Shown here: piece by piece, positions 898 to 21,331 of the stretch
How the letters are laid out: every line of letters starts with the position of its first letter
How positions within the stretch are numbered: the first letter of the stretch is position 1
NCBI RefSeq assembly: GCF_042679325.1
Contig: NZ_JBHTMJ010000012.1
Location: forward strand, 198,766 to 222,765
Reading direction: 5' to 3'
DNA from: Mucilaginibacter terrae
GTDB taxonomy: Bacteria; Bacteroidota; Bacteroidia; Sphingobacteriales; Sphingobacteriaceae
DNA: 24,000 bases
Notes under the pieces: model-generated
Database searches by the model: none
What the model saw: the letters and a program-made list of their open reading frames with translations, nothing else
Told to the model about the DNA's origin: nothing
Made by a program: the position numbers and the translations under genes

Positions 898-1704
898 ATG
901 ACAAATATGTTTTCGTTACAAGGAAAAACAGCTATTGTAACCGGTGCGTTAGGTCTTATCGGCAAAAAGCACTGCGAGGCACTGTCTGGTGCCGGTGCTA
1001 ACGTAGTTGTGGCCGATAGGGATGAACAAAGTGTTAAACTATTTGCCCGCCAATTAGGGCCACAGCATTCAGGTATGGCAATCGATGTTACCGATAAGGA
1101 GTCTGTTGTGGTGGCTTGCGAAAGCATACTCAAACAGTACCATACCATTGATGTACTGGTTAACAACGCGGCTATTAACGATATGTTTGAAAACCCGGCA
1201 ATGGCAAAAGAGCTCTCGGCGTTTGAAAATTATCCTTTAGAAGCTTTTCAACAATCGCTTAATGTGAATGTTACCGGTGTGTTTTTATGTTCGCAAGTGT
1301 TTGGTTCTGTAATGGCAGGGCAGGGCAGTGGCAGTATTATTAATATAGCCTCAACTTACGGCATGGTTGGCCCCGATCAGCGTATTTATCAGAACGAGTG
1401 CGGCGAGCAAACTTTTTACAAATCGGCAGCTTACCCCGTAACCAAAGGGGCGGTTATAAACTTTACCCGTTTTTTAGCAGCTTACTGGGGCAATAAAGGT
1501 GTACGTGTAAATACACTATCGCCAGGTGGCGTAGAGAACGGTCAAAACGAAATATTCATACAAAACTACTCCGCTAAAACAGTATTGGGCCGCATGGCGC
1601 AGGCAAATGATTATCAAGGTGCACTAATATACCTGGCAAGCGATGCTTCTGCTTACATGACAGGTGCCAACCTGGTGGTTGATGGTGGATGGACAGCAAT
1701 ATAA
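898..1704 (+). CDS. Short-chain dehydrogenase/reductase (SDR)
   Basis: It has the N-terminal Rossmann motif TGALGLIGKKH, the NNAAI motif and a catalytic Y-x3-K (YPVTK). The length of 268 aa fits. The ATG immediately follows the upstream stop. Confidence 0.9.
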   Translation: MTNMFSLQGKTAIVTGALGLIGKKHCEALSGAGANVVVADRDEQSVKLFARQLGPQHSGMAIDVTDKESVVVACESILKQYHTIDVLVNNAAINDMFENPAMAKELSAFENYPLEAFQQSLNVNVTGVFLCSQVFGSVMAGQGSGSIINIASTYGMVGPDQRIYQNECGEQTFYKSAAYPVTKGAVINFTRFLAAYWGNKGVRVNTLSPGGVENGQNEIFIQNYSAKTVLGRMAQANDYQGALIYLASDASAYMTGANLVVDGGWTAI

Positions 1705-1717
1705 CCCTAACAAAACT

Positions 1718-3154
1718 ATGAACGAGATTTTAAAACAAAAAGCAACCGATATTAAGTTGTTGCTGACCGATTGCGATGGTGTACTAACCGATGCCGGAGT
1801 TTATTATGGCAATAATGGCGAAAACCTTAAAAAATTTAACATGCGCGATGGAATGGGTGTTGAACGATTACGCAAGTATGCTGGTATTGAAACAGGCATT
1901 ATAACTGGCGAACATTCTCCATCGGTAATTAAACGTGCCGAAAAACTAAACATTACCGAATTACACTTAGGCGCTAAAAACAAACCGGTTATATTTAACG
2001 AAATTATTGACCGCCTGGGGCTGCAGCCACATGAAGTAGCTTATATAGGCGACGATCATAACGATCTGGAAATAATGAAACTGGCGTCTATAACCGCTTG
2101 CCCTGCCGATGCACTTCCCCAGGTACAAGCTCAGGCTGATATGGTTTGCAACCTTAAAGGTGGCGAAGGCTGTTTCAGGGAATTTGCCGAATGGCTGATC
2201 GAAGCTAAGAACGAAGCATCGATGTACCCGACAGGTAAAGGTTATATAACGTTAACCAACGGCCGAAAAATAGGTAAAAACCAGCCCGCCTATATAATAG
2301 CCGAAATTGGTATTAATCATAATGGCTCTTTAGAAACAGCCAAGCTGCTAATTGATGAAGCCGTGGCCGCTAAGGCAGATGCTGTTAAATTTCAAAAGCG
2401 TACACCGGAAATTTGTGTACCTAAGGATCAATGGGAAATTATGCGCGATACGCCATGGGGTCGTATTTCCTACATTGATTATAAACGCAAAACCGAATTT
2501 GGTATAGCCGAATATGCAGCAATTGATCAGTATTGTAAAAAATTAGGGATAGATTGGTTCGTATCGCCATGGGATATTAATGCGGTTGATTTCATGGAAC
2601 ATTTTGATACCGTAATTTATAAACTGGCATCGGCTTCGTTAACTGATCTTACTTTAATACAACGCATACTCCAAACTGGTAAACCGCTGATGTTGTCTAC
2701 CGGAATGTCTACCATTAAAGAGATAGAAGCAACGATGGCTTACATTAGGGCTTACAACGAAAATTATCCGCTTTGTATTGCTCATTCAACATCTGCATAT
2801 CCATGCCCACCTCACGAACTGAATCTCAGAATGATACAAACTTTAGAAGCTAAATACCCGGGCATACCTGTAGGATATTCTGGTCATGAAACAGGTTTAG
2901 CTACAACGGTTGCTGCGGTGGCCATGGGGGCAACTTTTGTGGAAAGACACTTTACGCTTGACCGTGCCATGTGGGGATCGGATCATGCTGCTTCGGTTGA
3001 GCCACAAGGCCTTCAACGTTTAGTACGCGACATCCGTGATACCGAAATTTCAGCCGGTGATGGTGTAAAAAGGGTTTATGAATCGGAACTTGCACCAATG
3101 AAACGGTTGCGTGTAAATATTAGCGACGAATATAAGGAGAAACCTGTTTCATAA
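1718..3154 (+). CDS. Fusion protein: KdsC/KDN-9-P-phosphatase-like HAD phosphatase (N-terminal) plus NeuB-family sialic/ulosonic acid synthase (C-terminal)
   Basis: I chose the start at the ATG MNEILKQ (1718), after the SDR stop at 1704. The track ORF from 1664 overlaps the SDR gene. The HAD motifs are LLLTDCDGVLTD and GDDHNDLE. The NeuB signature is PAYIIAEIGINHNGSLETAKLLIDEAVAAKADAVKFQKRT, followed by SGHE. No clear C-terminal SAF/antifreeze-like domain remains. Confidence 0.85.
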   Translation: MNEILKQKATDIKLLLTDCDGVLTDAGVYYGNNGENLKKFNMRDGMGVERLRKYAGIETGIITGEHSPSVIKRAEKLNITELHLGAKNKPVIFNEIIDRLGLQPHEVAYIGDDHNDLEIMKLASITACPADALPQVQAQADMVCNLKGGEGCFREFAEWLIEAKNEASMYPTGKGYITLTNGRKIGKNQPAYIIAEIGINHNGSLETAKLLIDEAVAAKADAVKFQKRTPEICVPKDQWEIMRDTPWGRISYIDYKRKTEFGIAEYAAIDQYCKKLGIDWFVSPWDINAVDFMEHFDTVIYKLASASLTDLTLIQRILQTGKPLMLSTGMSTIKEIEATMAYIRAYNENYPLCIAHSTSAYPCPPHELNLRMIQTLEAKYPGIPVGYSGHETGLATTVAAVAMGATFVERHFTLDRAMWGSDHAASVEPQGLQRLVRDIRDTEISAGDGVKRVYESELAPMKRLRVNISDEYKEKPVS

Positions 3155-4776: not shown

Positions 4777-5199
4777 TCATGGTAAGAGACGTAACAATTT
4801 GTTTGTGTTAGCGAAGCCTTCCCACTTTTTAGCCAATGTACCGTCGCTATTAAAATATAATAAGGTGGGAGTTGCCCTTATCGGGTACAGGCCGTTTAGT
4901 TTTTTCCCTTCTTCGCTGTCTACATCAATGGCTACATTAATCAATTGGGCATTGTAAACATCGCCGATTTGCTTTTCGACTAATATTTCGTGTTCCATTT
5001 TTTTACAGGTAGGGCACCAACTGGCGTGAGCGAAAACAAATAAAGGTTTGCCCGCTGCTTTAGCGGTTGCCTTTGCCTCATTCAAGGATATCATTTTAAA
5101 TTGCACACCGCTTTCTGAAGTTAACAAAGGTTTGAATTTAGAACGGCAGGCACCGAACAACAGGCTAATGATAAGCAGCAATGCATATTTATTTTTCAT
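4777..5199 (-). CDS. Thioredoxin-fold lipoprotein (CxxC)
   Basis: It has a signal peptide with lipobox LFGAC and the active-site-like motif WCPTCKKM. It starts one nt after the stop of the upstream gene on the same strand. Confidence 0.85.
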   Translation of the reverse strand: MKNKYALLLIISLLFGACRSKFKPLLTSESGVQFKMISLNEAKATAKAAGKPLFVFAHASWCPTCKKMEHEILVEKQIGDVYNAQLINVAIDVDSEEGKKLNGLYPIRATPTLLYFNSDGTLAKKWEGFANTNKLLRLLP

Positions 5200-5200
5200 T

Positions 5201-6889
5201 TCAGGAAATGGTTAGGTTCACATATTGAGTATTATTTTTGATCATGTCCATACCTTGACGATAGGTCATGTGGGCCAGCCCGCGCTTTTTACGGTTAAGT
5301 TTGCTAATATGATATAAAATAGCCCAGTGCCGGATAATCTCTTTCCATGCAAAAAAGATGGAATGTTTAGGGTCGTACATGTGGGCAGGTTCGCTGGCGG
5401 CACCATTCACCTCGATGATCTTAAATTTTCCGGCGCAGAGTTCTGCCCAGCTATCATATTTAACATCCAACCGGCCATAGTAAAAACCCGGAATCTGCGC
5501 GCATACCGCATGTATATTTTTAACTAATTCGGACGTAACCTGCGGGCTGAGGTCAATAAATTTGGCACCGCGGCTATGATTGCCATACGGCGCAGGTAGG
5601 CAGGCCTCGCCGTATGGCAACACTTTTTGTAAAGCCAGGCCATACGCTTTTTTCAAGGCTGGTATTTGCAGTAGGTATCTCGGATTGGCAGCAAGCAATT
5701 CTTGCAAAGTTGCCTTTCCATCTCCCGTAACCATCATCAATTCTTTACCCACAACACCGGTAATTGTACCCGTACGGCTTCCTGGCCTACTAAAATAAAA
5801 AATCCCGGCTTCGTAAGGGTGGCTAATATACTCTTGTAACAGGAAATCAACTTTACTGTTGGTCGCATAATCGGCTAGGTCTTGTTTTGATTGAAGTAAT
5901 TTGACCTGCAAGCCGCGCTGCCCTATATCGGGCTTAGCAATCAAGGGCAATTTTATCCCAGGGTTTTCTATTGAATATCCTGCTTTAACCAATATAGTTT
6001 GCGGGCAATATTGCGCCGGTATATGCGCATAAATATCGTTTTTACTATCCATCGCGAATCCGCCGTTTTTCATTCCGGGGTTAGCCGTATTGAAAAAAAA
6101 TATTGCACGCGATTTAAGGCTGAGCCAAAACCAGTAAAACATCACCGGGATATAAATCATATAGTATGGCCAATACTCCCAATTAAATAGTTTGACCATG
6201 AAAATTCGTAAACTTAGCCATGGTATTTGCGATGTTGTTATTGCCAAATGTTGTACCTGCATCGTAGTCGATTTCAGGTCATCGTAGGTCATTATAATGG
6301 CTTGGCCAAATACAATCTTAACATGTGTAATGCTTACCGTCCCGATTGTTCCTGCCAAACGTTCGGTTTGGTGAAAATTGATGATTGACCTGCTATCTGA
6401 TAAGATAGTACTTTTAAACCGGTCTTTTTTTACAGTTTGAGCAGTTTCATCATAAAGCGTGGCCGAACTCCAAATATGCGATGAATGCTGATCAAGCGGC
6501 AAAGTATATTTTGCCGTGCCATCCCAGCGGCATTCGTAGAGCATCCCATTCATACAAATAATTAAAGTAAATGGCTCAATGTTGTTGAGATCAACCGAAT
6601 TAAAATAGGCAAGAGGCTTACTGGCAGCTAAAACGTTAAGCAACAACACACCCCGGCTAATGCGATAGGGCGGTTGAGCAAAATGCTTAACAAATGCGCC
6701 GTTTAACAGCACTGCCATATCTCCATTGGCTTTAGCTGCTATCCAGCTTCCGCTCATATCCGGGTCCTTAGGATAAAGCATGTCTTGGTACACCGAAGGT
6801 GATAATGCCGAACCCCTGTTGCAATGTTCATCACGGTTGGAGGTAAGGTAAAAGCCGTCTTGAGTGGGTATATAAGTTACTGTGCACAT
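5201..6889 (-). CDS. Fusion protein: NRDE/TANGO2-like domain (N-terminal Cys2), transmembrane linker, ATP-grasp ligase domain
   Basis: The N-terminus MCTVTYIPTQDGFYLTSNRDEH contains the literal NRDE motif. A hydrophobic stretch follows (WEYWPYYMIYIPVMFYWFWLSL). ATP-grasp motifs are LIAKPDIGQRGLQVKLL, LLQEYI, RLDVKYD and IIEVNGAAS. Confidence 0.75.
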   Translation of the reverse strand: MCTVTYIPTQDGFYLTSNRDEHCNRGSALSPSVYQDMLYPKDPDMSGSWIAAKANGDMAVLLNGAFVKHFAQPPYRISRGVLLLNVLAASKPLAYFNSVDLNNIEPFTLIICMNGMLYECRWDGTAKYTLPLDQHSSHIWSSATLYDETAQTVKKDRFKSTILSDSRSIINFHQTERLAGTIGTVSITHVKIVFGQAIIMTYDDLKSTTMQVQHLAITTSQIPWLSLRIFMVKLFNWEYWPYYMIYIPVMFYWFWLSLKSRAIFFFNTANPGMKNGGFAMDSKNDIYAHIPAQYCPQTILVKAGYSIENPGIKLPLIAKPDIGQRGLQVKLLQSKQDLADYATNSKVDFLLQEYISHPYEAGIFYFSRPGSRTGTITGVVGKELMMVTGDGKATLQELLAANPRYLLQIPALKKAYGLALQKVLPYGEACLPAPYGNHSRGAKFIDLSPQVTSELVKNIHAVCAQIPGFYYGRLDVKYDSWAELCAGKFKIIEVNGAASEPAHMYDPKHSIFFAWKEIIRHWAILYHISKLNRKKRGLAHMTYRQGMDMIKNNTQYVNLTIS

Positions 6890-7380
6890 GCCTGTCTAAA
6901 TTTTAAGGTAGATGCAGCGATACCGAACCCTGCCGGTATTGCGATACCAGCAACCGTGTTAACACCAATACGGATTAAGGCCAGATGATGCACAGTATGC
7001 TCCAGATTATAAATCAGTTCTCGATAATAATTGGTGGTTACACTGACAGAATTTGTTTCCGCATCGTCGTAGTTCACCAACAATGTAAGTGCCCTGTCTG
7101 GTCTATCTAAGCCTGTAATAATTTCCTTCAACTCACCAATGGCCACAAATTTACTGCTTTCTATCGCATGGTTTCTTTTGCGTTGGTCATAATCTACCTT
7201 ACCGCTATCGTAACCTTTATTAAGCTCTATATAAAACTCCAGGATATGGCGGGTATGTTCGCCAATGGTAGCACCAGATAAAACACTTACCGGAAGGATA
7301 AATTGATCATTGGTTAATAACTCAAGCACTTCGCCTAATTGCTCTAATAACTTACTGATGGGTTTTGTTAGCGGCATCAT
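6877..7380 (-). CDS. DinB-family (four-helix-bundle, metal-binding) protein
   Basis: Histidine motifs spaced as in the DinB/YfiT superfamily (GEHTRHILEF ... LEHTVHHLALI). The length is 167 aa. It overlaps the downstream NRDE/ATP-grasp gene by 13 nt. Confidence 0.8.
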   Translation of the reverse strand: MMPLTKPISKLLEQLGEVLELLTNDQFILPVSVLSGATIGEHTRHILEFYIELNKGYDSGKVDYDQRKRNHAIESSKFVAIGELKEIITGLDRPDRALTLLVNYDDAETNSVSVTTNYYRELIYNLEHTVHHLALIRIGVNTVAGIAIPAGFGIAASTLKFRQACAQ

Positions 7381-7384
7381 TATA

Positions 7385-7783
7385 CTACAGTTTAAAAGGA
7401 ATAAAACTGATCAGCTGTCTTCTTAACAGTAATAGTAAAGCCGTACAGCTACTAAAAACCAGCATAGCCAGGATAAATAGTTTGCCACCGTCGTTTTGCA
7501 CCACCAACCCTAATTGCGTAATATGGAAAAATATGGCTCCGGCCATTATACCCAAGCCTAAAAGTGCGCCTAAACTGGTGGTTTTGGGGATCAGCGTCAA
7601 TATAGATGCAATAAGTTCAAAGCAGCCGATACCAATTCGGCCCCAGGGTTCCATATTCAGTTTGGTGAAAATATAAACCGATTCTGGCGCGGCGGTAAAT
7701 TTAAAGAACAGGGTTTGCAACATAATTGCCGCAGCCACCAGGCGTAAGATCCAGGTAACTATGTTGAATGTTTTAGTTGTCAT
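7385..7783 (-). CDS. DoxX-family integral membrane protein
   Basis: 132 aa with four hydrophobic helices and a DoxX-like N-terminus (ILRLVAAAIMLQTLFFKF). It lies 4 nt upstream of the DinB gene. Confidence 0.75.
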   Translation of the reverse strand: MTTKTFNIVTWILRLVAAAIMLQTLFFKFTAAPESVYIFTKLNMEPWGRIGIGCFELIASILTLIPKTTSLGALLGLGIMAGAIFFHITQLGLVVQNDGGKLFILAMLVFSSCTALLLLLRRQLISFIPFKL

Positions 7784-7797
7784 GATGTTACGGCGTT

Positions 7798-8235
7798 TTA
7801 TTGAACTTTAACTGCAGGCCATTGCTGGTCAGCTTTAATAATCAAATTAGGTTGATCCTTCGTCCAAATTTCTTTTACTTTAGAATTGTAGTTGAAATAA
7901 AGCTTATCGTTTACAATGGTCCATGTATCGGTTTGTGTTGGGGCTTTGTGGCCTTCGGCAGTACCATAGGCACAGTAACCGCCATATTGTGGGGCGTATT
8001 TTTCAGGCGCTGCTTTAAAGGCGTTCATGTCTTCCGTGCTGGCAAACAACCAAGTGGCATTATTCCATTGATAGGACAGGCTGTCCGCGCCTTTAACGGC
8101 TTTGGATTGTTTAAAAAAAGCAACCGGGTCATAACCTTTGATAGCTTTACCGCCGCTGATGAATACTTCTGATTTTTGTGCACTGGCACTTAATGTAAAA
8201 ATGGACAGGGCTGCAATGATGAGTGTACGTTTCAT
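7798..8235 (-). CDS. Secreted YHS-domain protein (paralog 2)
   Basis: It has a signal peptide (SASAQK) and YHS-type motifs KGYDPVAFF and PQYGGYCAYG. Confidence 0.8.
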   Translation of the reverse strand: MKRTLIIAALSIFTLSASAQKSEVFISGGKAIKGYDPVAFFKQSKAVKGADSLSYQWNNATWLFASTEDMNAFKAAPEKYAPQYGGYCAYGTAEGHKAPTQTDTWTIVNDKLYFNYNSKVKEIWTKDQPNLIIKADQQWPAVKVQ

Positions 8236-8250
8236 ATTTATTTTTTGTGA

Positions 8251-8703
8251 TTAATTTTGATTAAATTTTGTCCAGTTAGCATCCGCTTTGGTTTTCAGGT
8301 TGCTTTCATCCTTATCCCAAGATTTTTTGGTGTTGTTAAAAAACTTGTTGTAAAACAGGTAAAGCTTGCCGTTCACCAGTTTGAAGGTTTCCGGGTCAAC
8401 AGCTACCTTAGTGCCGTTGGCTCCCATCGCGTAAGCACACCAACCGCCATATTGAGGTTGATACTTTGCGGGATTCGCTTTAAACAGGTCGCGGTTTTGG
8501 GTACTGGCAAAATGATAAGTTACGTCCTGATTTAATAGCGCAATTTCTTTTCGTCCTTCTACCGCTTTTTGTTGGGTGAAATAGGCAACTGGATCGTAAC
8601 CTGCCAGCGCCAGGCCTGATCCGTCCAGGTTAAATTGTTTTTGAGCCTGAACATTGGTCAGCGTGCCAACCATAAATAATAAAAAAAATAAGTATTTGTA
8701 CAT
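8251..8703 (-). CDS. Secreted YHS-domain protein (paralog 1)
   Basis: It has a signal peptide (NVQAQK) and motifs AGYDPVAYF and PQYGGWCAYA. It is clearly paralogous to 7798..8235. Confidence 0.8.
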   Translation of the reverse strand: MYKYLFFLLFMVGTLTNVQAQKQFNLDGSGLALAGYDPVAYFTQQKAVEGRKEIALLNQDVTYHFASTQNRDLFKANPAKYQPQYGGWCAYAMGANGTKVAVDPETFKLVNGKLYLFYNKFFNNTKKSWDKDESNLKTKADANWTKFNQN

Positions 8704-8729: not shown

Positions 8730-8755
8730 GTCGCAGCTTACAACCAAACCTTACA
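8730..8755 (-). promoter_or_regulatory. Candidate ECF-type promoter of the YHS-YHS-DoxX-DinB-NRDE/ATP-grasp-Trx operon
   Basis: On the minus strand this reads TGTAAGG (8755-8749), then 15 nt, then CGAC (8733-8730). It lies 26 nt upstream of the ATG at 8703. The same bipartite motif occurs at four other start-proximal sites. Confidence 0.7.
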
Positions 8756-8766
8756 ATAAATTTATT

Positions 8767-8792
8767 TGTAAGGAAAGCTGTTGCGGCGCGAC
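8767..8792 (+). promoter_or_regulatory. Candidate ECF-type promoter of the DM13/beta-barrel operon
   Basis: TGTAAGG (8767-8773), then 15 nt, then CGAC (8789-8792), 28 nt upstream of the ATG at 8821. Confidence 0.7.
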
Positions 8793-8820: not shown

Positions 8821-9255
8821 ATGAAACATTTAATTTATTTAAGCGCTGTAATTGCACTTGCAGTGAGTTTTACCGGCTGTAAAAAAGAAACTACCCCTAT
8901 GGTAGCGCTCAATGAAAAAGTGGACGTTACTATATCTAAACCCGAAACCAGCAGCAGCAGTTTCAGGAACGGTGCTTACGGCTCTGTAACCGGTACCGCC
9001 CGCGTATATGAAACGAATGGTAAATACCAATTAGCATTGGAAAACTTTACCAGCAGCAATGGGCCCGATCTTAAAGTGTATATCAGCAAAGAGCAGCAAC
9101 CTGTTAACTTTGTGAATTTGGGTTCCTTAAAATCTACCGCAGGCAACCAATTGTACGATATACCGGTTAGCATCAATGTTAAAGAATATACGTACGCGCT
9201 GATTTATTGCCAGCAATACAGTCATTTATTCGGTTATACCCAATTCACTTATTAA
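8821..9255 (+). CDS. DM13-domain lipoprotein
   Basis: It has a lipobox (SFTGC) and DM13-like core GTARVYETNGKYQLALENFTSSNGPDLKVYISKE. Confidence 0.75.
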   Translation: MKHLIYLSAVIALAVSFTGCKKETTPMVALNEKVDVTISKPETSSSSFRNGAYGSVTGTARVYETNGKYQLALENFTSSNGPDLKVYISKEQQPVNFVNLGSLKSTAGNQLYDIPVSINVKEYTYALIYCQQYSHLFGYTQFTY

Positions 9256-9257
9256 GT

Positions 9258-10172
9258 ATGAAAAAGATATACCTTACTTGCATTGCCCTGCTATGCACGG
9301 CTTACAGTTTTGCCCAAGGTTGCAGTGATGCAGGCTTTTGCAGCCTTAGCGTGCTAAAAAATAATATTACCGATTCGGCCAACCATACGTTAAGTTTCGG
9401 TTTAAATTATGGTGTTGGCAAAGAGCAAACCAATATTACCAATGCTTACGTGGAATATGGCACCAAGATTAATAGTCGTTTATCATTCCAATCCAAACTC
9501 ACCGCTACTTATGCTACCGGCTTTTTAGGCAGCGCTTTTGATATCGGTGATATTTATGGCACACTCAATTACTCCTTTAAAACAAAGGCTAATTACAGTA
9601 TCAATATCATCGGAGGCGTTAAAGTTCCGCTTACCTCGGGTAATCATAAAAATAAGGATGGTAAACCGCTACCGCTGGATTATCAGGCCAGCATAAGTAC
9701 GTATGATGCTATTGGTGGGATCAATTATATTGTTAACCACAGTTGGGAGTTTGATGCCGGGATACAAGTGCCGGTGATACAAGTTAATAAAAGTACCTAC
9801 TTCCCGGATGAATATAGCGACCCAAGGGCAAAAGAATTTGCGCCAACCAATAATTTCAAGCGCAAAAGTGATATACTTGGCCGCATTGGCTATTATATTC
9901 AGTTTTCGGCATCAAACATCACCCTAAAACCAAGCTTGCTGGGTATCTACCATTTAGGAACTGATACTTATGAGGACCGCTTTGGTCAAATAACTGCGAT
10001 AACCGGATCAGATGGGTTTACGCTGAACGGCAGTATAGTTGGCACTAAAAAGTTCAATAATGGAAATAGCCTGGAAGTGCTTGTTGCTACGCCGTTTATT
10101 GTACGCAAAGTACGACCCGATGGATTGACCCGCGTAGGCGTGATCAATTTGCAATACACCATAGCCTTTTAA
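9258..10172 (+). CDS. Secreted hypothetical protein, probable outer-membrane beta-barrel
   Basis: I chose the start at MKKIYLTCIALL (9258), two nt after the DM13 stop. It has a signal peptide (SFAQG), alternating beta-strand-like patterns and a C-terminal aromatic residue (YTIAF). The mature N-terminus carries GCSDAGFCS. I recognise no family. Confidence 0.55.
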   Translation: MKKIYLTCIALLCTAYSFAQGCSDAGFCSLSVLKNNITDSANHTLSFGLNYGVGKEQTNITNAYVEYGTKINSRLSFQSKLTATYATGFLGSAFDIGDIYGTLNYSFKTKANYSINIIGGVKVPLTSGNHKNKDGKPLPLDYQASISTYDAIGGINYIVNHSWEFDAGIQVPVIQVNKSTYFPDEYSDPRAKEFAPTNNFKRKSDILGRIGYYIQFSASNITLKPSLLGIYHLGTDTYEDRFGQITAITGSDGFTLNGSIVGTKKFNNGNSLEVLVATPFIVRKVRPDGLTRVGVINLQYTIAF

Positions 10173-10277: not shown

Positions 10278-11060
10278 TTACAATCCCGAATAATAATCAT
10301 AACCCTCCCTGGCCCAGTAATCGGGCGGGCGGGTGTTACTGAAAGTCATAGAGCCGATACGCTTTAAATTTTTTATGCCATACTTAACCGGTATAATCAG
10401 TCGTAAAGGCGCTCCATGATTATGTGGGATAGGCCGGCCATTCATTTCATAGGCTAATATTGTTTGGGGATGAATGGCGCTGGGCATGTCCAGCCCAACC
10501 TGGTATTCCCCATCAGGGGTTATTAAGCCCATGTATTGCATTTTAATCTCTTCAGCCAGCCCAAAGTATTCAATAAAGTCAATCATTTTTAGGCCACCCC
10601 AGTATTGGATCTGGTCCCAGCCCTCCACACATTTGAAATCATAAACGATCTCTGTTTTTGGCAAAGCTTTGATCTGATCGATAGTAATGTGCACAACCTC
10701 GCCGCCTGATTTTTTTACCTCCATCTTCCAGCCGGCAATGTCAATGTTACTTTCCAAGCCAATGTTGCTGTTTTGCCGTACGTTTTTGGCCGCCATTGCT
10801 TTTGGATAAGTTTTAACTAAATGATTATTGCTAAAAAAATTTCGGAAAAAGAGTTCCGTTTTATTCAACGCACGACGTAGCGGCACTTGCGCCCCACCTG
10901 TTATCCCGGTTGCTTCTTCAGGCGAAGTGTACAGTATTCGCCAGCCTTTATAAGCCGCAGCCGAACTCAATGCAAAAACACTCAAGGATATAAAGTTGCG
11001 CCGCTTTATCTTTTGATCAATGGTGAGGGGTTTTTTAACTTTCTTTAGGTTGTTCATCAT
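10278..11060 (-). CDS. Periplasmic molybdopterin-dependent oxidoreductase (sulfite-oxidase fold, YedY/MsrP-like)
   Basis: It has a Tat-like signal (KRRNFISLSVFALSSAAA) and the motif FKCVEGWDQ, which resembles the Mo-ligand cysteine context of YedY-type enzymes. It overlaps the upstream cytochrome b gene by 26 nt. Confidence 0.85.
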   Translation of the reverse strand: MMNNLKKVKKPLTIDQKIKRRNFISLSVFALSSAAAYKGWRILYTSPEEATGITGGAQVPLRRALNKTELFFRNFFSNNHLVKTYPKAMAAKNVRQNSNIGLESNIDIAGWKMEVKKSGGEVVHITIDQIKALPKTEIVYDFKCVEGWDQIQYWGGLKMIDFIEYFGLAEEIKMQYMGLITPDGEYQVGLDMPSAIHPQTILAYEMNGRPIPHNHGAPLRLIIPVKYGIKNLKRIGSMTFSNTRPPDYWAREGYDYYSGL

Positions 11061-11736
11061 CCTTTGATATGTTTAAGGTTTTTGGGGTATTAACTACTTC
11101 GAAGCCTGAGATAACCGACCAGAAGTTTTTCCAGCCAGCCAATATTACCTGTATGATATGGATCAGGAAAAAGATAACATACCCAATTGTTAATATAAAG
11201 TGGATAATACGGGAGGCATGATAGCCCCCGCATAGCCAGGTAATAGTTGCAAATTGTACAGGCTTATAAATAGCAAGCCCGGTTACCAGTGAACCAAGCC
11301 CCATCAAAACTATAGCCGTGTAGGCAATGCGCTGTGCCGCGTTGTACTTATTTTGTGGCGGAAGCATTTTACGGATATGCAGGTCATGCAGCAGCACCAA
11401 CCAGGCCTCTTTAAATGACTTCCTATGCGGTACAAGTTCTCGCCATGAACCGGATATAATTGTGTAGGCTACATAGACCAAACCGTTAAGCGCAAAAAAC
11501 CACATAAATAAAAAGTGGAACGCCATGCCCTTGGCCAAATGCGCAGGTATATCCAACGCTTTGTTAAACCACTCCGGGAAAAACTTGAAATAGGTATGCC
11601 CGAATAGCGAAATGGTGTACACATCGTTACTCCAGTAAATGAGCATGCCGCTCCAAATCATAATGCTAAGCAGCGGAAAGTTGACCCAATGTGTCCAGCG
11701 CATCAGCACGGAATGCTTTTCTTTGATCGTTTTCAT
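11035..11736 (-). CDS. Membrane cytochrome b (Ni/Fe-hydrogenase / thiosulfate-reductase b-type cytochrome family)
   Basis: It begins RWTHWVNFPLLSIMIWSGMLIY and has several hydrophobic helices with conserved His residues (HFLFMWF, HFILTIGYVIFFLIHI). Confidence 0.85.
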   Translation of the reverse strand: MKTIKEKHSVLMRWTHWVNFPLLSIMIWSGMLIYWSNDVYTISLFGHTYFKFFPEWFNKALDIPAHLAKGMAFHFLFMWFFALNGLVYVAYTIISGSWRELVPHRKSFKEAWLVLLHDLHIRKMLPPQNKYNAAQRIAYTAIVLMGLGSLVTGLAIYKPVQFATITWLCGGYHASRIIHFILTIGYVIFFLIHIIQVILAGWKNFWSVISGFEVVNTPKTLNISKDDEQPKES

Positions 11737-11738
11737 CG

Positions 11739-12518
11739 TTACAGCGAAATTGGAAAGCCCGTGCGCGCGGCCGCATTAATTTTGCCTGTTTTACTATCCT
11801 GCAAAAAAGCAATCAACTCGAAATTTTTTGCCGAAAAATTAGGTGGTAATTTTATGTCATTTTCGCCCAAACTGGCGCTTACAGAAATAGTTTTAATATT
11901 AGTAACGATCTGCACGTGCGACAAACTGCGGCCGCGGTTCTCGCCGGCTTTCACTACCGTGGTTGCCTGCTTTTGTACCAACGCTAAAACTATGATGCTG
12001 CCCGATGCGGCATCGGTATGATATTTAATAGTAGCGGAGTTGTTATTGATCTTAACATCGCTCAGGGATAGCTTTACTGTAACGCTTTGTTTTAAACCCA
12101 TGCCGATTGCATTTCGCAGAGTGCCTTCCTGCGACCCAACAAATTCTGTTTGCCCATTAACAATTACCTGCGGCGTGTAAACCGAACTTAAATTCAGCCA
12201 GTTAGCATAGTTGTTTTGCCTGCGTGAGTAATCGGGACTGCTAAACACATCTTTCCAGCCCAGGCGGTTCCAGTAATCCACGTGGTAAGTCAGGATATAA
12301 ACAGGCTTACCTGTTACCTCTTGCTCTATTTTAGCCACCACAGCATCCGCCGGGGGGCAACTGGAGCAACCTTCAGAGGTAAATAACTCCACTACGGCAA
12401 ATCCTTCATCAGCAGCGGCAACTGGCTTTATTTTGTAACTGGTTTGAATAAATGCAAGAGAACTTAAACCTGCAATCTCCATGAATGCCAGCAATAAAAA
12501 TATTTTTATGGTTTTCAT
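11739..12518 (-). CDS. Secreted DUF1223-family thioredoxin-fold protein
   Basis: It has a signal peptide and the hallmark VELFTSEGCSSCPPAD. It lies 2 nt upstream of the cytochrome b gene. Confidence 0.8.
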   Translation of the reverse strand: MKTIKIFLLLAFMEIAGLSSLAFIQTSYKIKPVAAADEGFAVVELFTSEGCSSCPPADAVVAKIEQEVTGKPVYILTYHVDYWNRLGWKDVFSSPDYSRRQNNYANWLNLSSVYTPQVIVNGQTEFVGSQEGTLRNAIGMGLKQSVTVKLSLSDVKINNNSATIKYHTDAASGSIIVLALVQKQATTVVKAGENRGRSLSHVQIVTNIKTISVSASLGENDIKLPPNFSAKNFELIAFLQDSKTGKINAAARTGFPISL

Positions 12519-12621: not shown

Positions 12622-12639
12622 TAAAGGTTGTTTACACTA

Positions 12640-13224
12640 ATGGACGATATTAAAACACCTCCCGCCGTTCAGCAGCTTAACCCCAAAAACTGGGTAAAAG
12701 CCTATGCTGATTATTTATACCTATACGCTATTAGCCGCGTAGGCGACGAAGAGCAGGCACGCGACTTGGTGCAGGAAACTTTTTTAGCCGGCCTGCAAAG
12801 TATGCACAAGTTTGCCAACAAGAGTTCCGAACGTACCTGGTTAACAGCCATACTTAAAAATAAAATTTATGATGTGTACCGGAAAAAAGCCAGCGGATTT
12901 AAAACAGAAGAGATGATAAATATAACAGGTGAAGAGCCGGATTACTTTCAAGAAGACGGGCACTGGAAGAAGGATTATGAACCACGGCAATTTGGCGTAG
13001 ATGATTTTGACCCTTTGGTGCATAAAGAACTAAACCAGGCCCTGCAAAAATGCCTGAAAAAACTACCTGCTTTATGGCTGTCTGTTTTTACGATGAAACA
13101 CATGGATGATGAAGCTACTGATTTTGTTTGTGCCGAGCTGCGATTAAGCCAGGCCAATTTTTGGGTAATTATTCACCGGGCGAAACTTAACCTGCGGGCC
13201 TGTCTGCAAAAAAACTGGATGTAA
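12640..13224 (+). CDS. ECF-family RNA polymerase sigma-70 factor
   Basis: It has region 2-like (ARDLVQETFLAGL) and region 4-like (EATDFVCAELRLSQANFWVIIHRAKLNLRACL) segments and is about 195 aa long. The track start at 12628 is a TTG codon, so I prefer the ATG at 12640. Confidence 0.9.
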   Translation: MDDIKTPPAVQQLNPKNWVKAYADYLYLYAISRVGDEEQARDLVQETFLAGLQSMHKFANKSSERTWLTAILKNKIYDVYRKKASGFKTEEMINITGEEPDYFQEDGHWKKDYEPRQFGVDDFDPLVHKELNQALQKCLKKLPALWLSVFTMKHMDDEATDFVCAELRLSQANFWVIIHRAKLNLRACLQKNWM

Positions 13225-13225
13225 G

Positions 13226-13501
13226 ATGAACGACTTTAAAAAAATAATTTATAACTGCCGAAAGGCGACCTACCTGATCGATAAAAGATTAATAGGCAGG
13301 ATAACCTTTCGCGAGACAGTTGAGCTGCGTATGCACCTTTTTGGCTGCAATGTTTGCCGTATTTACATGTGCCAAAGCCAAAAGATCAACGAGATGATCA
13401 GGCAAATGCTAAAGTCAGATCACCAGCCAGAAATAAAGTTAGACGAGAATTTTAAAGATGCCCTACAAGTAAAAATTGAGAACCAATTAAATAAAAATTG
13501 A
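13226..13501 (+). CDS. Small soluble zinc-binding anti-sigma factor (ZAS type)
   Basis: The ATG lies 1 nt after the sigma gene stop. It has Cys11 and His37-x3-Cys41-x2-Cys44 (HLFGCNVC). It has no hydrophobic transmembrane segment and is 91 aa long. Confidence 0.75.
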   Translation: MNDFKKIIYNCRKATYLIDKRLIGRITFRETVELRMHLFGCNVCRIYMCQSQKINEMIRQMLKSDHQPEIKLDENFKDALQVKIENQLNKN

Positions 13502-13506
13502 CTTTT

Positions 13507-13532
13507 TGTAAGGTTTGGTAATGATTAGCGAC
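13507..13532 (+). promoter_or_regulatory. Candidate ECF-type promoter of the Met/Lys-rich mini-protein gene
   Basis: TGTAAGG (13507-13513), then 15 nt, then CGAC (13529-13532), 27 nt upstream of the ATG at 13560. It shares the extended identity TTGTAAGGTTTGGT...CGACAAAG with the YHS promoter. Confidence 0.7.
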
Positions 13533-13559
13533 AAAGGGGCAAACACTAAATAAAAAAAC

Positions 13560-13787
13560 ATGAAAACTTACAAATCACTGATCTCGGGTTTATTATTAAC
13601 AGGCGCTTTATTTCTTGCGTTCAATGTTAACGCTGCTCCTTTTCAAGACAAAATGTCTAAGATGAAAAAAGACTCTATGGAGATGAAAAAAAAGGAGATG
13701 AAAAAAATGGACAAGATGAAGATGGACAAGAAGAAGATGGACAAGAAAAAAATGAAAAAAGATACCTCGAAAATGGGTAAAATGTAA
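13560..13787 (+). CDS. Secreted Met/Lys-rich repeat mini-protein (MxKDx-like pentapeptide repeats)
   Basis: It has a signal peptide (FNVNA|AP). The predicted 50-aa mature part contains 12 Met and 21 Lys by my count, in units such as MKKDS, MKKKE, MDKKK and MKKDT. Confidence 0.7.
   Translation: MKTYKSLISGLLLTGALFLAFNVNAAPFQDKMSKMKKDSMEMKKKEMKKMDKMKMDKKKMDKKKMKKDTSKMGKM
13653..13784 (+). repeat. Purine-rich low-complexity coding repeat (ATG/AAR/GAY units)
   Basis: It contains imperfect tandem units such as atggacaagaagaag / atggacaagaaaaaa. These encode the Met/Lys-rich tail. Confidence 0.6.
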
Positions 13788-14741
13788 TATGCAGTTGATT
13801 GCGAGGTTATTATTGCTTTCCATACGAAGAGGGGCTTTTACCCTTTTTTATATCAGGCAAACTAATGCTATGCTATCGAGATCAAATATGCCTAATCGAT
13901 TCAGATCTGATCGTTGGTATGGAGCACAATTTCCAGGTAATTACCTGCATTTAATATAATAACTGGCTGCCTGCGGTGCAGGTACAAGTACCCGTCAAAT
14001 TAAAGGACCATAGGTAATTAGAAATTAAAAGGCCTCAAATTAAAATTTGAGGCCTTTTAATTGTTTTTGTTATATGCGGAGAGTTAGGGTTCAGAACCTA
14101 AGCTCCTATGCTTTGATTAACAGTGCTTTGCATTTTGAAAAGTTCCCTACTTTACGAATTACGCAAATAGCAAGTTACTCTAATTGTTAAATTGAATATA
14201 CTGTATTTAACGATTCTCATAAAGATTTTCTATTCTTGAAATGAAGTTACTTTCTTGTAAGTATAAACCATCCCAGGTGATATTGAGGATGTGGAATTAT
14301 TATTTAAAAATTAAGTGGCGATAACTTAAGAGCTCTAATATAGATTTATCTTAAAGGTTTTATTATGGTGTTCGCAATTTGAATAAAAGCATTTACCTTA
14401 CCGCTAAACCGTATTATATTGAGTTTTTTTTAAAAGCTTTATCGATGCGCATAAATATTTATAAGCAGTTCGAATTCGTTAAGTTTCAATGCTTTGTTGT
14501 GGTCTTTAATCCAGCTTATATCCTTAAAAGTGGCAGGTGGTATAATAATGGACAAAAACATATTTTGTGGTAATAAGCACTAAGCAGCCTAATCCCAATT
14601 CATCTTTTATCTTCTCAGGGATAATTCCATTACATAATTTATTGTATTAAACTTAGTCTTAATGATTATAAAATTATCTTAAAAAGAAAATTTTGATAAA
14701 AACCAAACTTACACTTCGGCGTTACTTACATAAAACAACAC
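13788..14741. other. ORF-poor AT-rich spacer at the left border of the glycosyltransferase block
   Basis: About 0.95 kb without a convincing gene. One hand-counted 60-nt line (14581-14640) was about 32% GC. It contains the strong hairpin at 14027-14058. Confidence 0.6.
14027..14058. terminator. Strong, potentially bidirectional intrinsic terminator hairpin
   Basis: AAAAGGCCTCAAAT-taaa-ATTTGAGGCCTTTT forms a perfect 14-bp stem with a 4-nt loop. It has A-run and T-run flanks and is followed by ttgtttttgtt. Confidence 0.7.
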
Positions 14742-15896
14742 ATGCAAGCCATAAACACTTGTGAGTCTTCTCCAAAATTATTCAAAATTGAGCCGAAAGA
14801 AGCAATGCGGATCGCGGTCATTGTACCAGTAAAAAACGAAGCAGAAGGATTGGTGCGTACCCTGGATGCTCTAAGGATGCAAAAGGATGAAACAGGTTTG
14901 CCGCTCCATCCTTCAATATACGAAGTGTTACTATTAGCTAATAATTGTACGGACAACACTTTTAAGATTGCTCAGCAATATCAGACCCTATTCCCAAGAT
15001 TTAACCTGCATATCTCCGAGATTGATCTGCCAAAACCTGATGCTCATATCGGCACGGTAAGAAGAATGATGATGGATGAGGCTTATGAAAGATTTATGTC
15101 CATCGGACAAGCAAAAGGAATAATAGTATCTACCGATGGGGATAGTGAGGTTGACAGCCAGTGGATTCATTTTATATTAATAGAAATGGATAAAGGAAAT
15201 GATGTGGTAGGAGGGCGCATATTAACAAGAAACACACCATCATTATCAAAAATGCATCATTTAAGGGATGTGAGTTACCGGTATCATTTAAGCCGACTCG
15301 AATCTATACTGGATCCGTCTCAATTTGATCCTTGGCCACGGCATTTTCAGTGCTACGGTCCAAGTTTGGCTGTAACGTGCGATATTTATCATAAGGCGGG
15401 GCGTATTCCGGCTATTCCATACCTGGAGGACGAAGAGTTCAGAAAAGCGCTTTACCGGATTGATGCCAAAGTAAGAAAATCACCCTTGGTTAAAGTGTAC
15501 ACATCCGCCAGACTTATAGGCAAAGTAACTTTTGGGTTTTCCGTACAGTTGAAGCAATGGGGAGATATGACGCTTGAAAATCAGCAGCAACAGGTAGAAC
15601 CGCTGCCCTCACTAATCCAGAAAACTAAAGTCAAAAATGAATTGCGCCAAGTATGGAAAAGTAAGGAAGAACTATATGCTGAAGATCACCGCTTGCAAAA
15701 AATTAGCACGGGGTTGATGCTGGATCTGCAGTGGCTCTATGAAAGGATCAGCGCATCCTCCTATTTTGGCGAGTTATGGGAATCAATAGAAGACGAACTG
15801 GAAAACGGACGCTGGAGAGAAGTTCATTCGTTGGAACCTATTTCCCAGGTAATCAGTAATTTTAGGCAATTTTTTTATGGTGCAAATTTGGCTTAA
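14742..15896 (+). CDS. Family-2 glycosyltransferase (GT-A fold)
   Basis: It has the N-terminal motif RIAVIVPVKNEAEGLVRTLDALRMQ and an acidic motif STDGDSEVD. An alternative start MRIAVIV at 14805 is possible. Confidence 0.85.
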   Translation: MQAINTCESSPKLFKIEPKEAMRIAVIVPVKNEAEGLVRTLDALRMQKDETGLPLHPSIYEVLLLANNCTDNTFKIAQQYQTLFPRFNLHISEIDLPKPDAHIGTVRRMMMDEAYERFMSIGQAKGIIVSTDGDSEVDSQWIHFILIEMDKGNDVVGGRILTRNTPSLSKMHHLRDVSYRYHLSRLESILDPSQFDPWPRHFQCYGPSLAVTCDIYHKAGRIPAIPYLEDEEFRKALYRIDAKVRKSPLVKVYTSARLIGKVTFGFSVQLKQWGDMTLENQQQQVEPLPSLIQKTKVKNELRQVWKSKEELYAEDHRLQKISTGLMLDLQWLYERISASSYFGELWESIEDELENGRWREVHSLEPISQVISNFRQFFYGANLA

Positions 15897-21322: not shown

Positions 21323-21331
21323 GTTAAGCAA

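Follow-up and report, generated by a model that had tools for sequence, protein, structure and literature searches.

What does a TANGO2/NRDE domain do when it is built into one polypeptide with an amide ligase? Proteins of the TANGO2/NRDE family are found everywhere, and a severe metabolic disorder arises when human TANGO2 is lost, with the reaction of the family disputed between a haem chaperone, an acyl-CoA binder and a Cys-Ntn hydrolase. The window analyzed here, a stretch of 24,000 nucleotides from Mucilaginibacter terrae, contains a gene for such a fusion. No publication on an NRDE-ATP-grasp fusion module was found in the searchable literature.

Architecture of the fusion protein

The fusion gene (5201..6889, minus strand) starts with ATG and encodes 562 amino acids plus a stop codon. 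In agreement with the first-pass annotation, a single open reading frame carries three parts: a TANGO2/NRDE Cys-Ntn domain, an aromatic hydrophobic helix and an ATP-grasp domain. The product is 100% identical to the NCBI entry 'NRDE family protein [Mucilaginibacter terrae]', has 1456 homologues at E ≤ 1e-3 in a protein similarity search, and was modeled by AF2 with a pLDDT of 87 and a pTM of 0.72. The gene junctions proposed earlier are borne out by the coordinates and the sequence. The start of the fusion overlaps the upstream DinB-like reading frame by 13 nt (6877..6889), where GCATGTGCACAGTAA codes for both the terminal ACAQ and stop of one protein and the initial MCTV of the other, and its TGA stop lies 1 nt before the ATG of a 140-residue CxxC lipoprotein (4777..5199, minus strand). 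The same-strand run comprises six genes, starting with a YHS paralogue, with gaps of 15, 14, 4, -13 and 1 nt.

The N-terminal domain (residues 1–215; 6245..6889, minus strand; Cys2 codon at 6884..6886) matches the Pfam family PF05742 (TANGO2/NRDE) with 38.9 bits for the full protein and 41.7 bits for the isolated domain, above the gathering cutoff of 22.6. The modeled domain displays the alpha-beta-beta-alpha arrangement of the Ntn fold and is superposable on solved TANGO2 (8sv7/9bwa) in Foldseek, with an E-value of 3e-9 and a target-normalised TM-score of 0.55–0.59; CV2077 (3gvz) is also matched. Residues C2, R19, D20 and E21 are invariant in a 36-sequence alignment, and a profile alignment equates N18-R19-D20-E21 with N25-R26-D27-E28 of TANGO2, R25 with R32, and R79-G80 with R88-G89. 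An MCTV[TS] start and the RDE motif occur in all 80 of the best related loci, so that the proposed Met-Cys start holds well beyond M. terrae. The domain is predicted to be the N-terminal-cysteine amidohydrolase or acyltransferase domain of a TANGO2/NRDE family protein.

The segment that follows (residues 222–261; 6107..6226, minus strand), referred to here as the WEYWP...ANP element, consists of an amphipathic helix and an aromatic hydrophobic helix, modeled at residues 225–235 and 242–260 with pLDDT values of 85–96. It had been described as a membrane linker. The aromatic-rich stretch of residues 240–258 is hydrophobic and, by the Wimley-White octanol scale, membrane-seeking (-18 kcal/mol, the best value within the protein), but its Kyte-Doolittle value of about 1.1 is under the level of a classical transmembrane helix, and an interfacial or monotopic membrane anchor is probable. 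Nor does it behave as a mere linker: the element also starts stand-alone ligases of about 350 residues and, in fusions of other kinds, comes after a LysE or VTT domain. By these comparisons, the aromatic helix is the conserved N-terminal element and hallmark of the whole ligase family.

The C-terminal region (residues 262–562; 5204..6106, minus strand) contains the motifs K319-P-D-I-G-Q-R-G326, Q352-E-Y-I, G-N-H438-S-R440-G, R473-L-D475 and E493-V-N495. Residues K319, P320, G323, G326, Q352, R473, D475, E493 and N495 are invariant in the 36-sequence alignment, and the motifs are found in 73–78 of 79 loci. No curated family model reached its cutoff for this domain, the Pfam models RimK and TTL scoring 15.9 bits (cutoff 21) and 13.4 bits (cutoff 20.1), and the best NCBIfam model 20 bits (cutoff 218); stand-alone relatives of the ligase were likewise unmatched by the curated Pfam and NCBIfam ATP-grasp models. 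A Foldseek search with the AF2 model retrieved CphA2 (7ta5), CphA1, Ddl, VanA and GshF with E-values of 7e-9 to 1e-6, more than 40 of the best 50 matches being ATP-grasp ligases, and a 45-sequence profile matched the CphA2-type structures 8fxh (2e-11) and 7ta5 (2e-10), followed by GshAB (3ln6; 6e-8) and CphA1 (2e-7). The fold (AF2, Foldseek) and the conserved or invariant KPDIGQRG, QEYI, RLD and ExN motifs thus uphold the earlier claim of a complete ATP-grasp domain. By motifs and model, the domain belongs to the ATP-grasp carboxylate-amine ligases of the cyanophycin-synthetase/GshF clade, its chemistry itself being predicted. The ligase family comprises 2695 clusters at 50% identity, none of which is covered by Pfam or NCBIfam models, and the module defines an uncharacterised, very widespread and putatively membrane-tethered ATP-grasp family.

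Distribution of the module and its partner genes

Species-representative genomes contain at least 593 related loci, and partner genes were counted in the best 80. The survey of fused and adjacent genes proposed in the first-pass annotation shows that fusion is the minority form, with 22 fused and 57 split loci, the latter having separate adjacent genes. The commonness of split forms in other genera could suggest that the M. terrae gene is a frameshift or assembly artefact of two genes; this reading is effectively refuted by the identical NCBI protein, by more than 100 clusters of full-length homologues (540–600 residues, 45–69% identity) from independent isolates and metagenomes, and by the fused form in 22 species genomes of at least five genera. 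The fusion is genuine and widely conserved in Bacteroidota.

The NRDE domain is always N-terminal and the synthetase C-terminal, in a strictly adjacent or fused arrangement. A second, independent fusion (P0220) has the order NRDE-abhydrolase-VTT-ATP-grasp with a DinB_2 gene upstream, and a third arrangement consists of DinB_2 and TANGO2 genes followed by an abhydrolase-VTT-ATP-grasp gene. The ligase occurs without NRDE in L084, L087 and L089; in L084, LysE takes the place of NRDE and the DinB-like gene is kept. Three independent LysE-ATP-grasp fusions (P0126, P0157, P0191) and a minimal ATP-grasp and LysE pair (L087/88) were also found. A LysE-type translocator gene lies immediately downstream of the ligase in 40 of the best 80 loci; because it is missing in the window, this partner escaped the first-pass annotation.

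The DinB-like gene (167 residues; 6877..7380, minus strand), translationally coupled to the fusion, is the tightest partner. It lies upstream and overlaps the NRDE start in 78 of the best 80 loci, and it is also found upstream of the distant variants L081, L083, L084, L086 and L090, so that the proposed coupling extends beyond M. terrae and into distant architectures; the proteins of L081, L083, L086 and L090 are 32–40% identical. The protein encoded in the window has no Pfam or NCBIfam match even at an E-value of 10, the DinB and DinB_2 models included. Its AF2 model (pLDDT 89) points to a DinB four-helix-bundle fold: the best 18 Foldseek matches in the PDB are all DinB/YfiT structures, with TM-scores of 0.40–0.69 (top 10: 0.55–0.69), although their E-values, between 3e-3 and 0.2, are weak, and the M. 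tuberculosis mycothiol S-transferase (8f5v) appears further down the list. Residues H42, R44, H45, E48, E127, H128, H131 and H132 are invariant, and H42, H128 and H132 (plus H45 and H131) show the HxxxH spacing of a metal site that, on this sequence pattern, is putative. A few homologues (P0359, P0380) carry a PF12867 record, as do the partners in L081 and L086. The earlier assignment to DinB is thus backed by the fold, the H..HxxxH pattern and the DinB_2 matches of some homologues, but not by any HMM match of the window protein.

Upstream, in the order of transcription before the DinB-like gene, are two secreted YHS-domain (seleno)protein-family paralogues, at 8251..8703 (GGWCAYA; NF041384, 140.5 bits) and 7798..8235 (GGYCAYG; 153 bits, cutoff 70), and a DoxX-family membrane protein (7385..7783; Pfam DoxX_2 and DoxX above cutoff), all on the minus strand. 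Co-occurrence of these genes, which had been put forward for checking, is frequent: DoxX is present in 68 and YHS in 60 of the best 80 loci, and a 55%-identical DoxX homologue is found in L083 and a partial one upstream of the VTT-ATP-grasp gene in L085. The conserved core of the module is the series DinB-like, NRDE and ligase, often with a LysE-type gene downstream and DoxX and YHS upstream.

By contrast, the thioredoxin-like CxxC lipoprotein (Thioredoxin_7, 52 bits, and Thioredoxin_2; LFGAC lipobox, WCPTC), which had been counted with the module, occurs in only 4 of the best 80 loci, all from Mucilaginibacter or Puia, and is a lineage-specific passenger. It sits after a LysE-type gene in L001 and L012, an order seen in M. 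gossypii; in the M. terrae window, it abuts the operon in place of the missing exporter gene. On the plus strand, the divergent genes of a DM13 lipoprotein (Pfam, 56.6 bits) and a putative outer-membrane protein (8821..10172) recur in 24 and, for the latter 321-residue protein, 13 of the best 80 loci. An ECF sigma factor (Sigma70_r2 and sigma70-ECF matches) and an HxxxCxxC (ZAS-type) anti-sigma factor, whose family model scores 40.7 bits against a cutoff of 50, are encoded at 12628..13501 (plus strand), and homologous sigma and anti-sigma genes recur in 17 and 15 of the 80 loci. YceI, MsrP-like and cytochrome b genes are further envelope redox neighbours, and a cytochrome b561-type gene is nearby.

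Candidate functions of the module

We tentatively favour, at somewhat less than an even chance, a reading in which a membrane-tethered synthetase/amidase pair and a DinB-like metalloenzyme act on one small amide-linked metabolite. This compound would probably be amino-acid-derived, possibly thiol-bearing, and exported within the context of an envelope redox-stress operon. At the cytoplasmic face of the membrane, the ligase would act on a small metabolite of amino-acid- or peptide-like nature, converting its carboxylate into an acyl-phosphate and then, with an amine, into an amide. The DinB-like enzyme would transform or transfer the compound via a His-bound metal, a step that may be thiol-dependent by analogy with every characterised DinB-fold enzyme, and the Cys2 Ntn domain would cleave or trans-acylate the amide of the same compound. 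The NRDE domain might remove a handle after the DinB step, following the logic of EgtA/EgtB/EgtC, or might set the steady-state level of the conjugate as in the GspSA synthetase/amidase, with an oxidisable Cys2 as the redox switch. In loci with a LysE-type partner, export would carry the product to the periplasm, in which DoxX and the YHS proteins would act.

The coexistence of fused and adjacent-split forms is a Rosetta-stone pattern that links the activities of NRDE and ligase. The reading is further favoured by the DinB_2 genes upstream of both the second fusion and the third arrangement, by the near-constant DinB-like gene and its persistence where LysE replaces NRDE, and by the LysE genes, fusions and minimal pair. 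The nearest relatives of the ligase, CphA2, CphA1 and GshAB, join an amino-acid amine to the alpha-carboxylate of a peptide or amino acid, and the ATP-grasp catalytic motifs, Cys2, the NRDE motif, R25 and R79 are conserved. Envelope redox neighbours (DoxX, YHS, YceI, DM13, the ECF sigma and ZAS anti-sigma factors, MsrP-like, cytochrome b) and the structure-based argument that TANGO2 is a Cys-Ntn hydrolase (PMC13044924) point in the same direction. Against it stand the loci in which the ligase lacks NRDE, which indicate that the hydrolase is not obligatory, the absence of LysE from half of the loci, the window included, and the weak Foldseek E-values of the DinB-like protein (3e-3 and worse). 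The suggestion in the first-pass annotation of a small-molecule ligation and transfer module tied to redox stress is consistent with the genomic context, the redox link coming from the gene neighbourhood only. A more far-reaching version, in which the operon makes, recycles and exports a new low-molecular-weight amide-linked (possibly thiol) metabolite for envelope redox defence in aerobic Bacteroidota, with ATP-grasp as synthetase, the DinB-like protein as transferase, NRDE as amidase and LysE as exporter, is possible but on balance unlikely.

Several features point to a lipid substrate as much as to a soluble one. The anchored ligase could attach an amino acid at the free carboxylate of a lipid built on an N-acyl amino acid, of the ornithine-, glycine- or lysine-lipid type, with NRDE as the N-acyl amidase, in the manner of NAAA, acid ceramidase or bile-salt hydrolase, alpha/beta-hydrolases stripping ester-linked acyl chains, and DedA/VTT partners flipping the lipid. 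Such membrane-lipid amide remodelling would suit the aromatic, membrane-seeking interfacial helix, the fusions with abhydrolase and VTT/DedA domains, the abhydrolase gene found downstream in about 10 of the best 80 loci, and the acyltransferase genes that adjoin the module in two distant loci (OlsF-like in L081, OlsB- and OlsA-like in L090). Fatty-acyl amides are cleaved by every one of the closest structural relatives of TANGO2, which itself binds acyl-CoA (PMC13044924). However, Ols-like genes were detected neither in the 80 Bacteroidota loci nor in the window, the partners and fusions from the LysE family speak for a small, soluble solute, and the nearest ligase relatives use peptides rather than lipids. 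Lipid remodelling also gives no role to the DinB-like protein, DoxX or YHS, and we consider it an unlikely account.

An amidotransferase logic, in which glutamine or another amide donor would be hydrolysed by the Cys-Ntn domain and the resulting ammonia or amine handed to the ATP-grasp domain for amidation of an acyl-phosphate, is improbable. Asparagine synthetase B, with its class II glutaminase domain, and carbamoyl-phosphate synthetase, with its glutaminase and ATP-grasp parts, offer parallels; the obligatory order of an N-terminal Ntn and a C-terminal synthetase, strictly adjacent or fused, would agree with it, as would the precedents of AsnB, GlmS, PurF and CarAB. It is at odds with the occurrence of the ligase without NRDE in several contexts, with the hydrophobic helix between the domains, and with the grouping of the NRDE fold with TANGO2 and CV2077, class II glutaminases being absent from the top 50 Foldseek matches.

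A further proposal, which appears quite improbable, is that of protein or peptide tailing: amino acids would be added to a C-terminus or side chain in a RimK/TTL/LysX-like manner and trimmed by NRDE, with the DinB-like protein as substrate or carrier. It draws on weak similarities to RimK, TTL and LysX and on the translational coupling with a DinB-like protein whose C-terminal helix is highly conserved. However, the invariant Cys-Ala-Gln at the C-terminus of that protein follows of necessity from the overlap with the MCTV codons and is missing from distant homologues, an acidic tail is lacking, no reading frame for a small precursor lies within or beside the operon, and the LysE partners favour a small solute.

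Haem trafficking, with NRDE serving the nearby cytochrome b561-type and DM13 proteins like Shewanella HtpA, a bacterial TANGO2 homologue reported to bind haem and boost cytochrome c maturation (PMC10470608), and with the ATP-grasp domain unrelated or regulatory, is very improbable, since it explains neither why the domain is repeatedly fused with, or next to, an amide ligase nor why its Ntn catalytic constellation is invariant, most HtpA homologues were not interchangeable (PMC10470608), and the crystallographic work reports the TANGO2-haem contacts to be non-specific (PMC13044924).

Relation to known systems and implications

The favoured synthetase/amidase reading has a close architectural counterpart in E. 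coli GspSA and trypanothione synthetase-amidase, which combine an N-terminal cysteine-nucleophile amidase with a C-terminal ATP-grasp-type amide synthetase in one polypeptide. In both enzymes the two domains act on the same small conjugate, and in GspSA the balance moves towards the conjugate when the amidase Cys becomes oxidised under oxidative stress. The resemblance would be architectural and mechanistic only: the amidase here has an Ntn (TANGO2/NRDE) rather than a CHAP fold, a hydrophobic membrane-seeking helix separates the domains, an obligatory DinB-like partner is present, and no match to the CHAP or GSP_synth Pfam domains was found in the fusion.

The ATP-grasp half shares the V-x-GDG-x-T and N-x-S/H-x-G motifs with the G-domain of CphA1/CphA2 and with GshF/GshAB, enzymes that couple an amino-acid amine to a peptide alpha-carboxylate. 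It differs in the WEYWP helix element, which replaces the N-terminal Rossmann-like subdomain, in the lack of Mur-ligase and GCL domains, and in an identity of only about 13–20%. The N-terminal half has the Pfam family, fold, Met-Cys start, NRDE motif and two anion-binding arginines of human TANGO2 (PMC13044924), and compares with the Cys-Ntn hydrolases isopenicillin-N acyltransferase, bile-salt hydrolase, acid ceramidase and NAAA. Its surroundings set it apart from human TANGO2, to which it is about 13% identical: a fused or neighbouring amide ligase and a coupled DinB-like gene have not been described for TANGO2 in the searchable literature.

The DinB-like protein resembles the bacillithiol transferase BstA/YfiT and the mycothiol S-transferase MST in its predicted four-helix bundle and H...HxxxH pattern, but its invariant Arg, Tyr and Asn residues form a set of their own, and its thiol use is suggested by analogy. 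In the mycobacterial EgtA/EgtB/EgtC pathway, an ATP-dependent amide ligase adds a handle, the sulfur chemistry is carried out by a DinB-domain metalloenzyme, and the handle is then taken off by a Cys-Ntn amidohydrolase. The module may follow the same three-part logic, by analogy alone, with an ATP-grasp instead of a GCS2 ligase, a DinB-like protein without the FGE-sulfatase domain, and NRDE instead of a class II GATase; no EgtD- or EgtE-like genes were found in the window.

Repeated independent fusion and strict adjacency, together with the obligatory DinB-like partner, are strong genomic evidence that the TANGO2/NRDE family processes a metabolite amide bond, and they name the ligase as the enzyme that probably makes this bond. 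In Bacteroidota from soil and freshwater, the module defines a conserved operon with a predicted role in envelope stress. If the more far-reaching metabolite reading is true, TANGO2/NRDE proteins would have as their native reaction class the hydrolysis of amides formed by a CphA/GshF-type ligase, and the enzyme that is lost in human TANGO2 deficiency disorder would become biochemically accessible for the first time. The bacterial module offers a handle on the role of a human disease protein.

The fusion gene and its operon

Six genes form a same-strand run on the minus strand of the window, with ORF calls in the order YHS (8251–8703), YHS (7798–8235), DoxX (7385–7783), DinB-like (167 aa; 6877–7380), fusion (562 aa; 5201–6889) and lipoprotein (140 aa; 4777–5199), and gaps of 15, 14, 4, −13 and 1 nt. 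The 13-nt overlap of the DinB-like and fusion genes (6877–6889; GCATGTGCACAGTAA) reported in the first-pass annotation is present in the sequence, where it encodes the end of the 167-aa protein (..ACAQ*) and the start of the 562-aa protein (MCTV..), as is the reported 1-nt junction between the fusion and lipoprotein genes (TGA-A-ATG). The 562-aa protein and a 'NRDE family protein' of Mucilaginibacter terrae in NCBI are 100% identical.

A pattern scan, run on a single genome for each species, returned at least 593 related loci, whose titled records belong nearly all to Bacteroidota (Sphingobacteriales, Chitinophagales, Cytophagales and Flavobacteriales). Among the best 80 loci, NRDE and ATP-grasp halves share one gene in 22 (Mucilaginibacter, Pedobacter, Chitinophaga, Puia, Dyadobacter and others) and occupy two adjoining genes, 0–13 nt apart, in 57 (Flavobacterium, Ferruginibacter, Sediminibacterium, Maribacter and others). 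With the fused form recurring in several genera, the fusion is real and not an artefact, though not always one gene. One Puia metagenome-assembled genome (MAG) contains two complete fused loci (L010 and L011), and an additional stand-alone ligase paralogue lies upstream of the module in locus L026 (3210–4253).

An Rfam search of the window gave no match, and so no riboswitch or RNA clue, and promoter and terminator searches, with a sigma-70 scan and the Bacteroidetes TTTG/TAnnTTTG pattern, gave nothing informative. A perfect palindrome, CTTACAA-N9-TTGTAAG (8750–8772), lies in a 117-nt divergent region flanked by YHS and DM13 genes; none of 100 shuffled sequences contains one. The 90 other loci lack it, so that it may serve as a local operator.

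Fold assignments

The fusion scores 38.9 bits against Pfam TANGO2/NRDE (threshold 22.6). In its AF2 model, computed from 36 homologues (pLDDT 87, pTM 0.72), the N-terminal half matches crystal structures of human TANGO2 (E 3e-9). The NRDE-domain profile aligns N18-R-D-E21 with N25–E28 of TANGO2, R25 with R32, and R79-G80 with R88-G89, residues that the TANGO2 structure paper (PMC13044924) proposes for catalysis and anion binding in a Cys-Ntn hydrolase.

Neither the C-terminal half nor the DinB-like protein reaches the cutoff of a curated profile, so that fold comparison and custom profiles were needed. For the C-terminal half, RimK comes to 15.9 bits against a cutoff of 21 among Pfam and NCBIfam models. 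A single-sequence PDB search returned only a spurious designed-repeat match. A structure search with the predicted model shows an ATP-grasp fold for the C-terminal half, and a profile built from 45 family members matches CphA2-type ATP-grasp domains (E 2e-11 and 2e-10), GshAB (E 6e-8) and CphA1 (E 2e-7). Residues K319, P320, G323, G326, Q352, H438, R440, G441, R473, D475, E493 and N495 are invariant in an alignment of 36 sequences. The first-pass annotation had made its reading depend on conservation of Cys2 and of the ATP-grasp catalytic residues; Cys2 and the RDE motif occur in 80/80 loci, the best of the at least 593, and the ATP-grasp motifs in 73–78 of 79.

The middle segment consists of an amphipathic and an aromatic helix (WPYYMIYIPVMFYWFWLSL). 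The membrane linker proposed earlier stands insofar as this is the most membrane-partitioning stretch of the fusion on the Wimley-White scale, but with a Kyte-Doolittle value of ~1.1 it is poor as a classical transmembrane helix. The NRDE domain lacks a signal peptide and must have its N-terminal Cys free, and ATP-grasp needs ATP; both domains are therefore probably cytoplasmic. An interfacial or re-entrant anchor suits the segment better than a linker that crosses the membrane.

The C-terminal 348 residues, used as query in an exhaustive search, produced 2695 clusters at 50% identity, most of them stand-alone proteins of ~350 aa that open with the same WEYWP helix element. In one family member (P0139, 558 aa), a C-terminal transmembrane segment and a MORN-repeat domain replace the N-terminal fusion partner.

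The DinB-like protein, without an HMM match in curated profile libraries, yields an AF2 model of pLDDT 89 whose first 18 structural matches are all DinB/YfiT proteins, with weak E-values; the mycothiol S-transferase of M. tuberculosis appears lower among the matches. The spacing of the invariant H42, H128 and H132 is consistent with an H...HxxxH metal triad. Cys165, also invariant, was rejected as a functional residue or tailing site: conservation of the C-terminal Cys-Ala-Gln is forced by the nucleotides shared with the NRDE Met-Cys-Thr-Val (ATG-TGY), and distant homologues whose genes do not overlap lack it.

Partner genes and alternative architectures

Neighbours of the fusion were sought by tblastn in the best 80 loci. 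The DinB-like gene was found in 78, almost always ending 10 nt inside the NRDE gene, DoxX in 68, YHS in 60, DM13 in 24, and a 321-aa putative outer-membrane protein in 13. Association with DinB, DoxX and YHS extends beyond the window. The thioredoxin-like lipoprotein, which the first-pass annotation had counted as a coupled member, occurs in just 4 of the 80 and loses that place.

De novo clustering of all ORFs in the 80 loci added a membrane protein of ~215 aa directly 3' of the ligase (40 loci), a Crp/FNR regulator (21), an ECF sigma factor with its HxxxCxxC anti-sigma (17 and 15; window copy 12628–13501), YceI (14) and an alpha/beta-hydrolase (~10). The membrane protein is homologous to LysE-type domains N-terminal to the ligase in proteins P0126 and P0157 (E 3e-12 and 5e-15). 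Of three LysE-fused ligases, P0157 and P0191 pass the Pfam LysE threshold, and P0126 scores 23.5 bits, just under the 25.6 cutoff.

No LysE-type gene is present in the window. The gene order in M. gossypii and a Mucilaginibacter MAG is fusion, LysE, thioredoxin lipoprotein; in the compared stretches, L001:7779–8882 and L012:7785–8922, a LysE-type translocator gene separates the fusion gene from the thioredoxin gene, and the window (5199–5203) has 1 nt instead. The LysE and thioredoxin parts of L001 read as a single 367-aa ORF. The LysE gene is wholly lost from the window and, since relatives carry it at this position, the thioredoxin adjacency is a local, derived state.

The association recurs in other architectures. 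P0220 (1121 aa, on a contig of 69% GC) joins NRDE, alpha/beta-hydrolase, VTT/DedA and ligase, with a DinB_2 gene directly upstream; P0249 joins abhydrolase, VTT and ligase, and has DinB_2 and an unfused TANGO2 gene ahead of it. The stand-alone ligase P0140 closes a run of AraC, YHS, DoxX, DinB-like, TANGO2 and ligase. A DinB-like gene precedes the LysE-ligase fusion P0157, where NRDE is absent, a DoxX homologue precedes the VTT-ligase P0268, and a minimal ligase and LysE pair also exists. Because these associations recur across unrelated architectures, ligase and DinB-like protein form the tightest core; NRDE, LysE, DedA, abhydrolase, DoxX and YHS recur as accessories.

Elsewhere in the window, another envelope redox gene block adjoins the operon (10278–12518, minus strand), encoding an MsrP-like molybdopterin oxidoreductase, which scores under its equivalog cutoff, together with a membrane protein of cytochrome b561 type and a thioredoxin-fold protein (DUF1223). 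Directly 3' of the ECF sigma/anti-sigma pair, in a low-GC stretch (13000–15000), lies a gene for a 75-aa secreted peptide (13560–13787, plus strand) with extreme Met/Lys richness, MKKDxM-type repeats and no NCBIfam match; it may serve in metal binding, as a Met-rich peptide, or as a sacrificial antioxidant. The minus-strand set at 16715–21331, comprising a GT4 glycosyltransferase weakly similar to BshA/MshA, an SfnB-like acyl-CoA-dehydrogenase-fold protein and a BshB-like LmbE/PIG-L deacetylase (70 bits, cutoff 195) with a fused methyltransferase, resembles the opening steps of GlcN-based thiol synthesis. The BshA/BshB-like genes were rejected as operon partners, with scores far under cutoffs and no linkage to the operon elsewhere. 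The gene at 1664–3154 (plus strand) encodes a KdsC-type sugar-phosphate phosphatase fused to a NeuB-type nonulosonic-acid synthase (496 aa).

Proposed function of the module

These results show that a Cys-Ntn domain, an amide ligase of the CphA/GshF clade and a DinB-fold protein are functionally coupled, often joined by a putative exporter of small amino-acid-like solutes, and belong to an operon that encodes envelope redox proteins. We tentatively propose that the three act on one small amide-linked compound. At the membrane, the ligase would build an amide on a small compound derived from an amino acid. The DinB-like metalloenzyme would transform or transfer the compound so made, the Ntn domain would cleave an amide of that compound, and LysE would export the product. 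GspSA, which is redox-switched and carries a Cys amidase and an ATP-grasp synthetase in one chain, provides a precedent for both activities on one polypeptide, as in the fusion, and EgtA/B/C (ligase, DinB-domain enzyme and Cys-Ntn amidohydrolase) for the three-part set. To our knowledge, all characterised DinB-fold enzymes use low-molecular-weight thiols. A more specific version, in which the compound would be a thiol or redox metabolite that is both new and exported, we consider improbable.

The main rival, remodelling of amide-linked membrane lipids, would better explain the partnership with abhydrolase and DedA, the interfacial helix and the lipid-amide specificity of TANGO2's relatives, but leaves DinB, DoxX, YHS and LysE unexplained, and we judge it about as improbable. 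Among the distant variants, OlsF-like (Acyltransf_2+Acetyltransf_5) and TMEM164 genes adjoin the module at L081:5551–8209, and OlsB-like, OlsA-like and alpha/beta-hydrolase genes at L090:6491–9016. These neighbours hint at aminolipid metabolism; the link was set aside, as they come only from two distant metagenomic loci, and the 80 Bacteroidota loci have none of them. A precursor peptide for RiPP or tailing chemistry was dismissed, with no plausible small ORF, operon gaps of at most 15 nt and junk ORFs only in the 313-nt downstream spacer.

A full-text literature search found no paper joining NRDE or TANGO2 with ATP-grasp, and the HtpA paper of 2023 (PMC10470608) states that bacterial TANGO2 homologues had been unstudied until then. 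In databases these proteins carry only the labels 'NRDE family', 'D-alanine--D-alanine ligase' or 'hypothetical'. Neither the ligase family nor the whole module has been characterised; since all the folds are known, the module represents a bifunctional amidase/synthetase with accessory enzymes rather than a categorically new entity.
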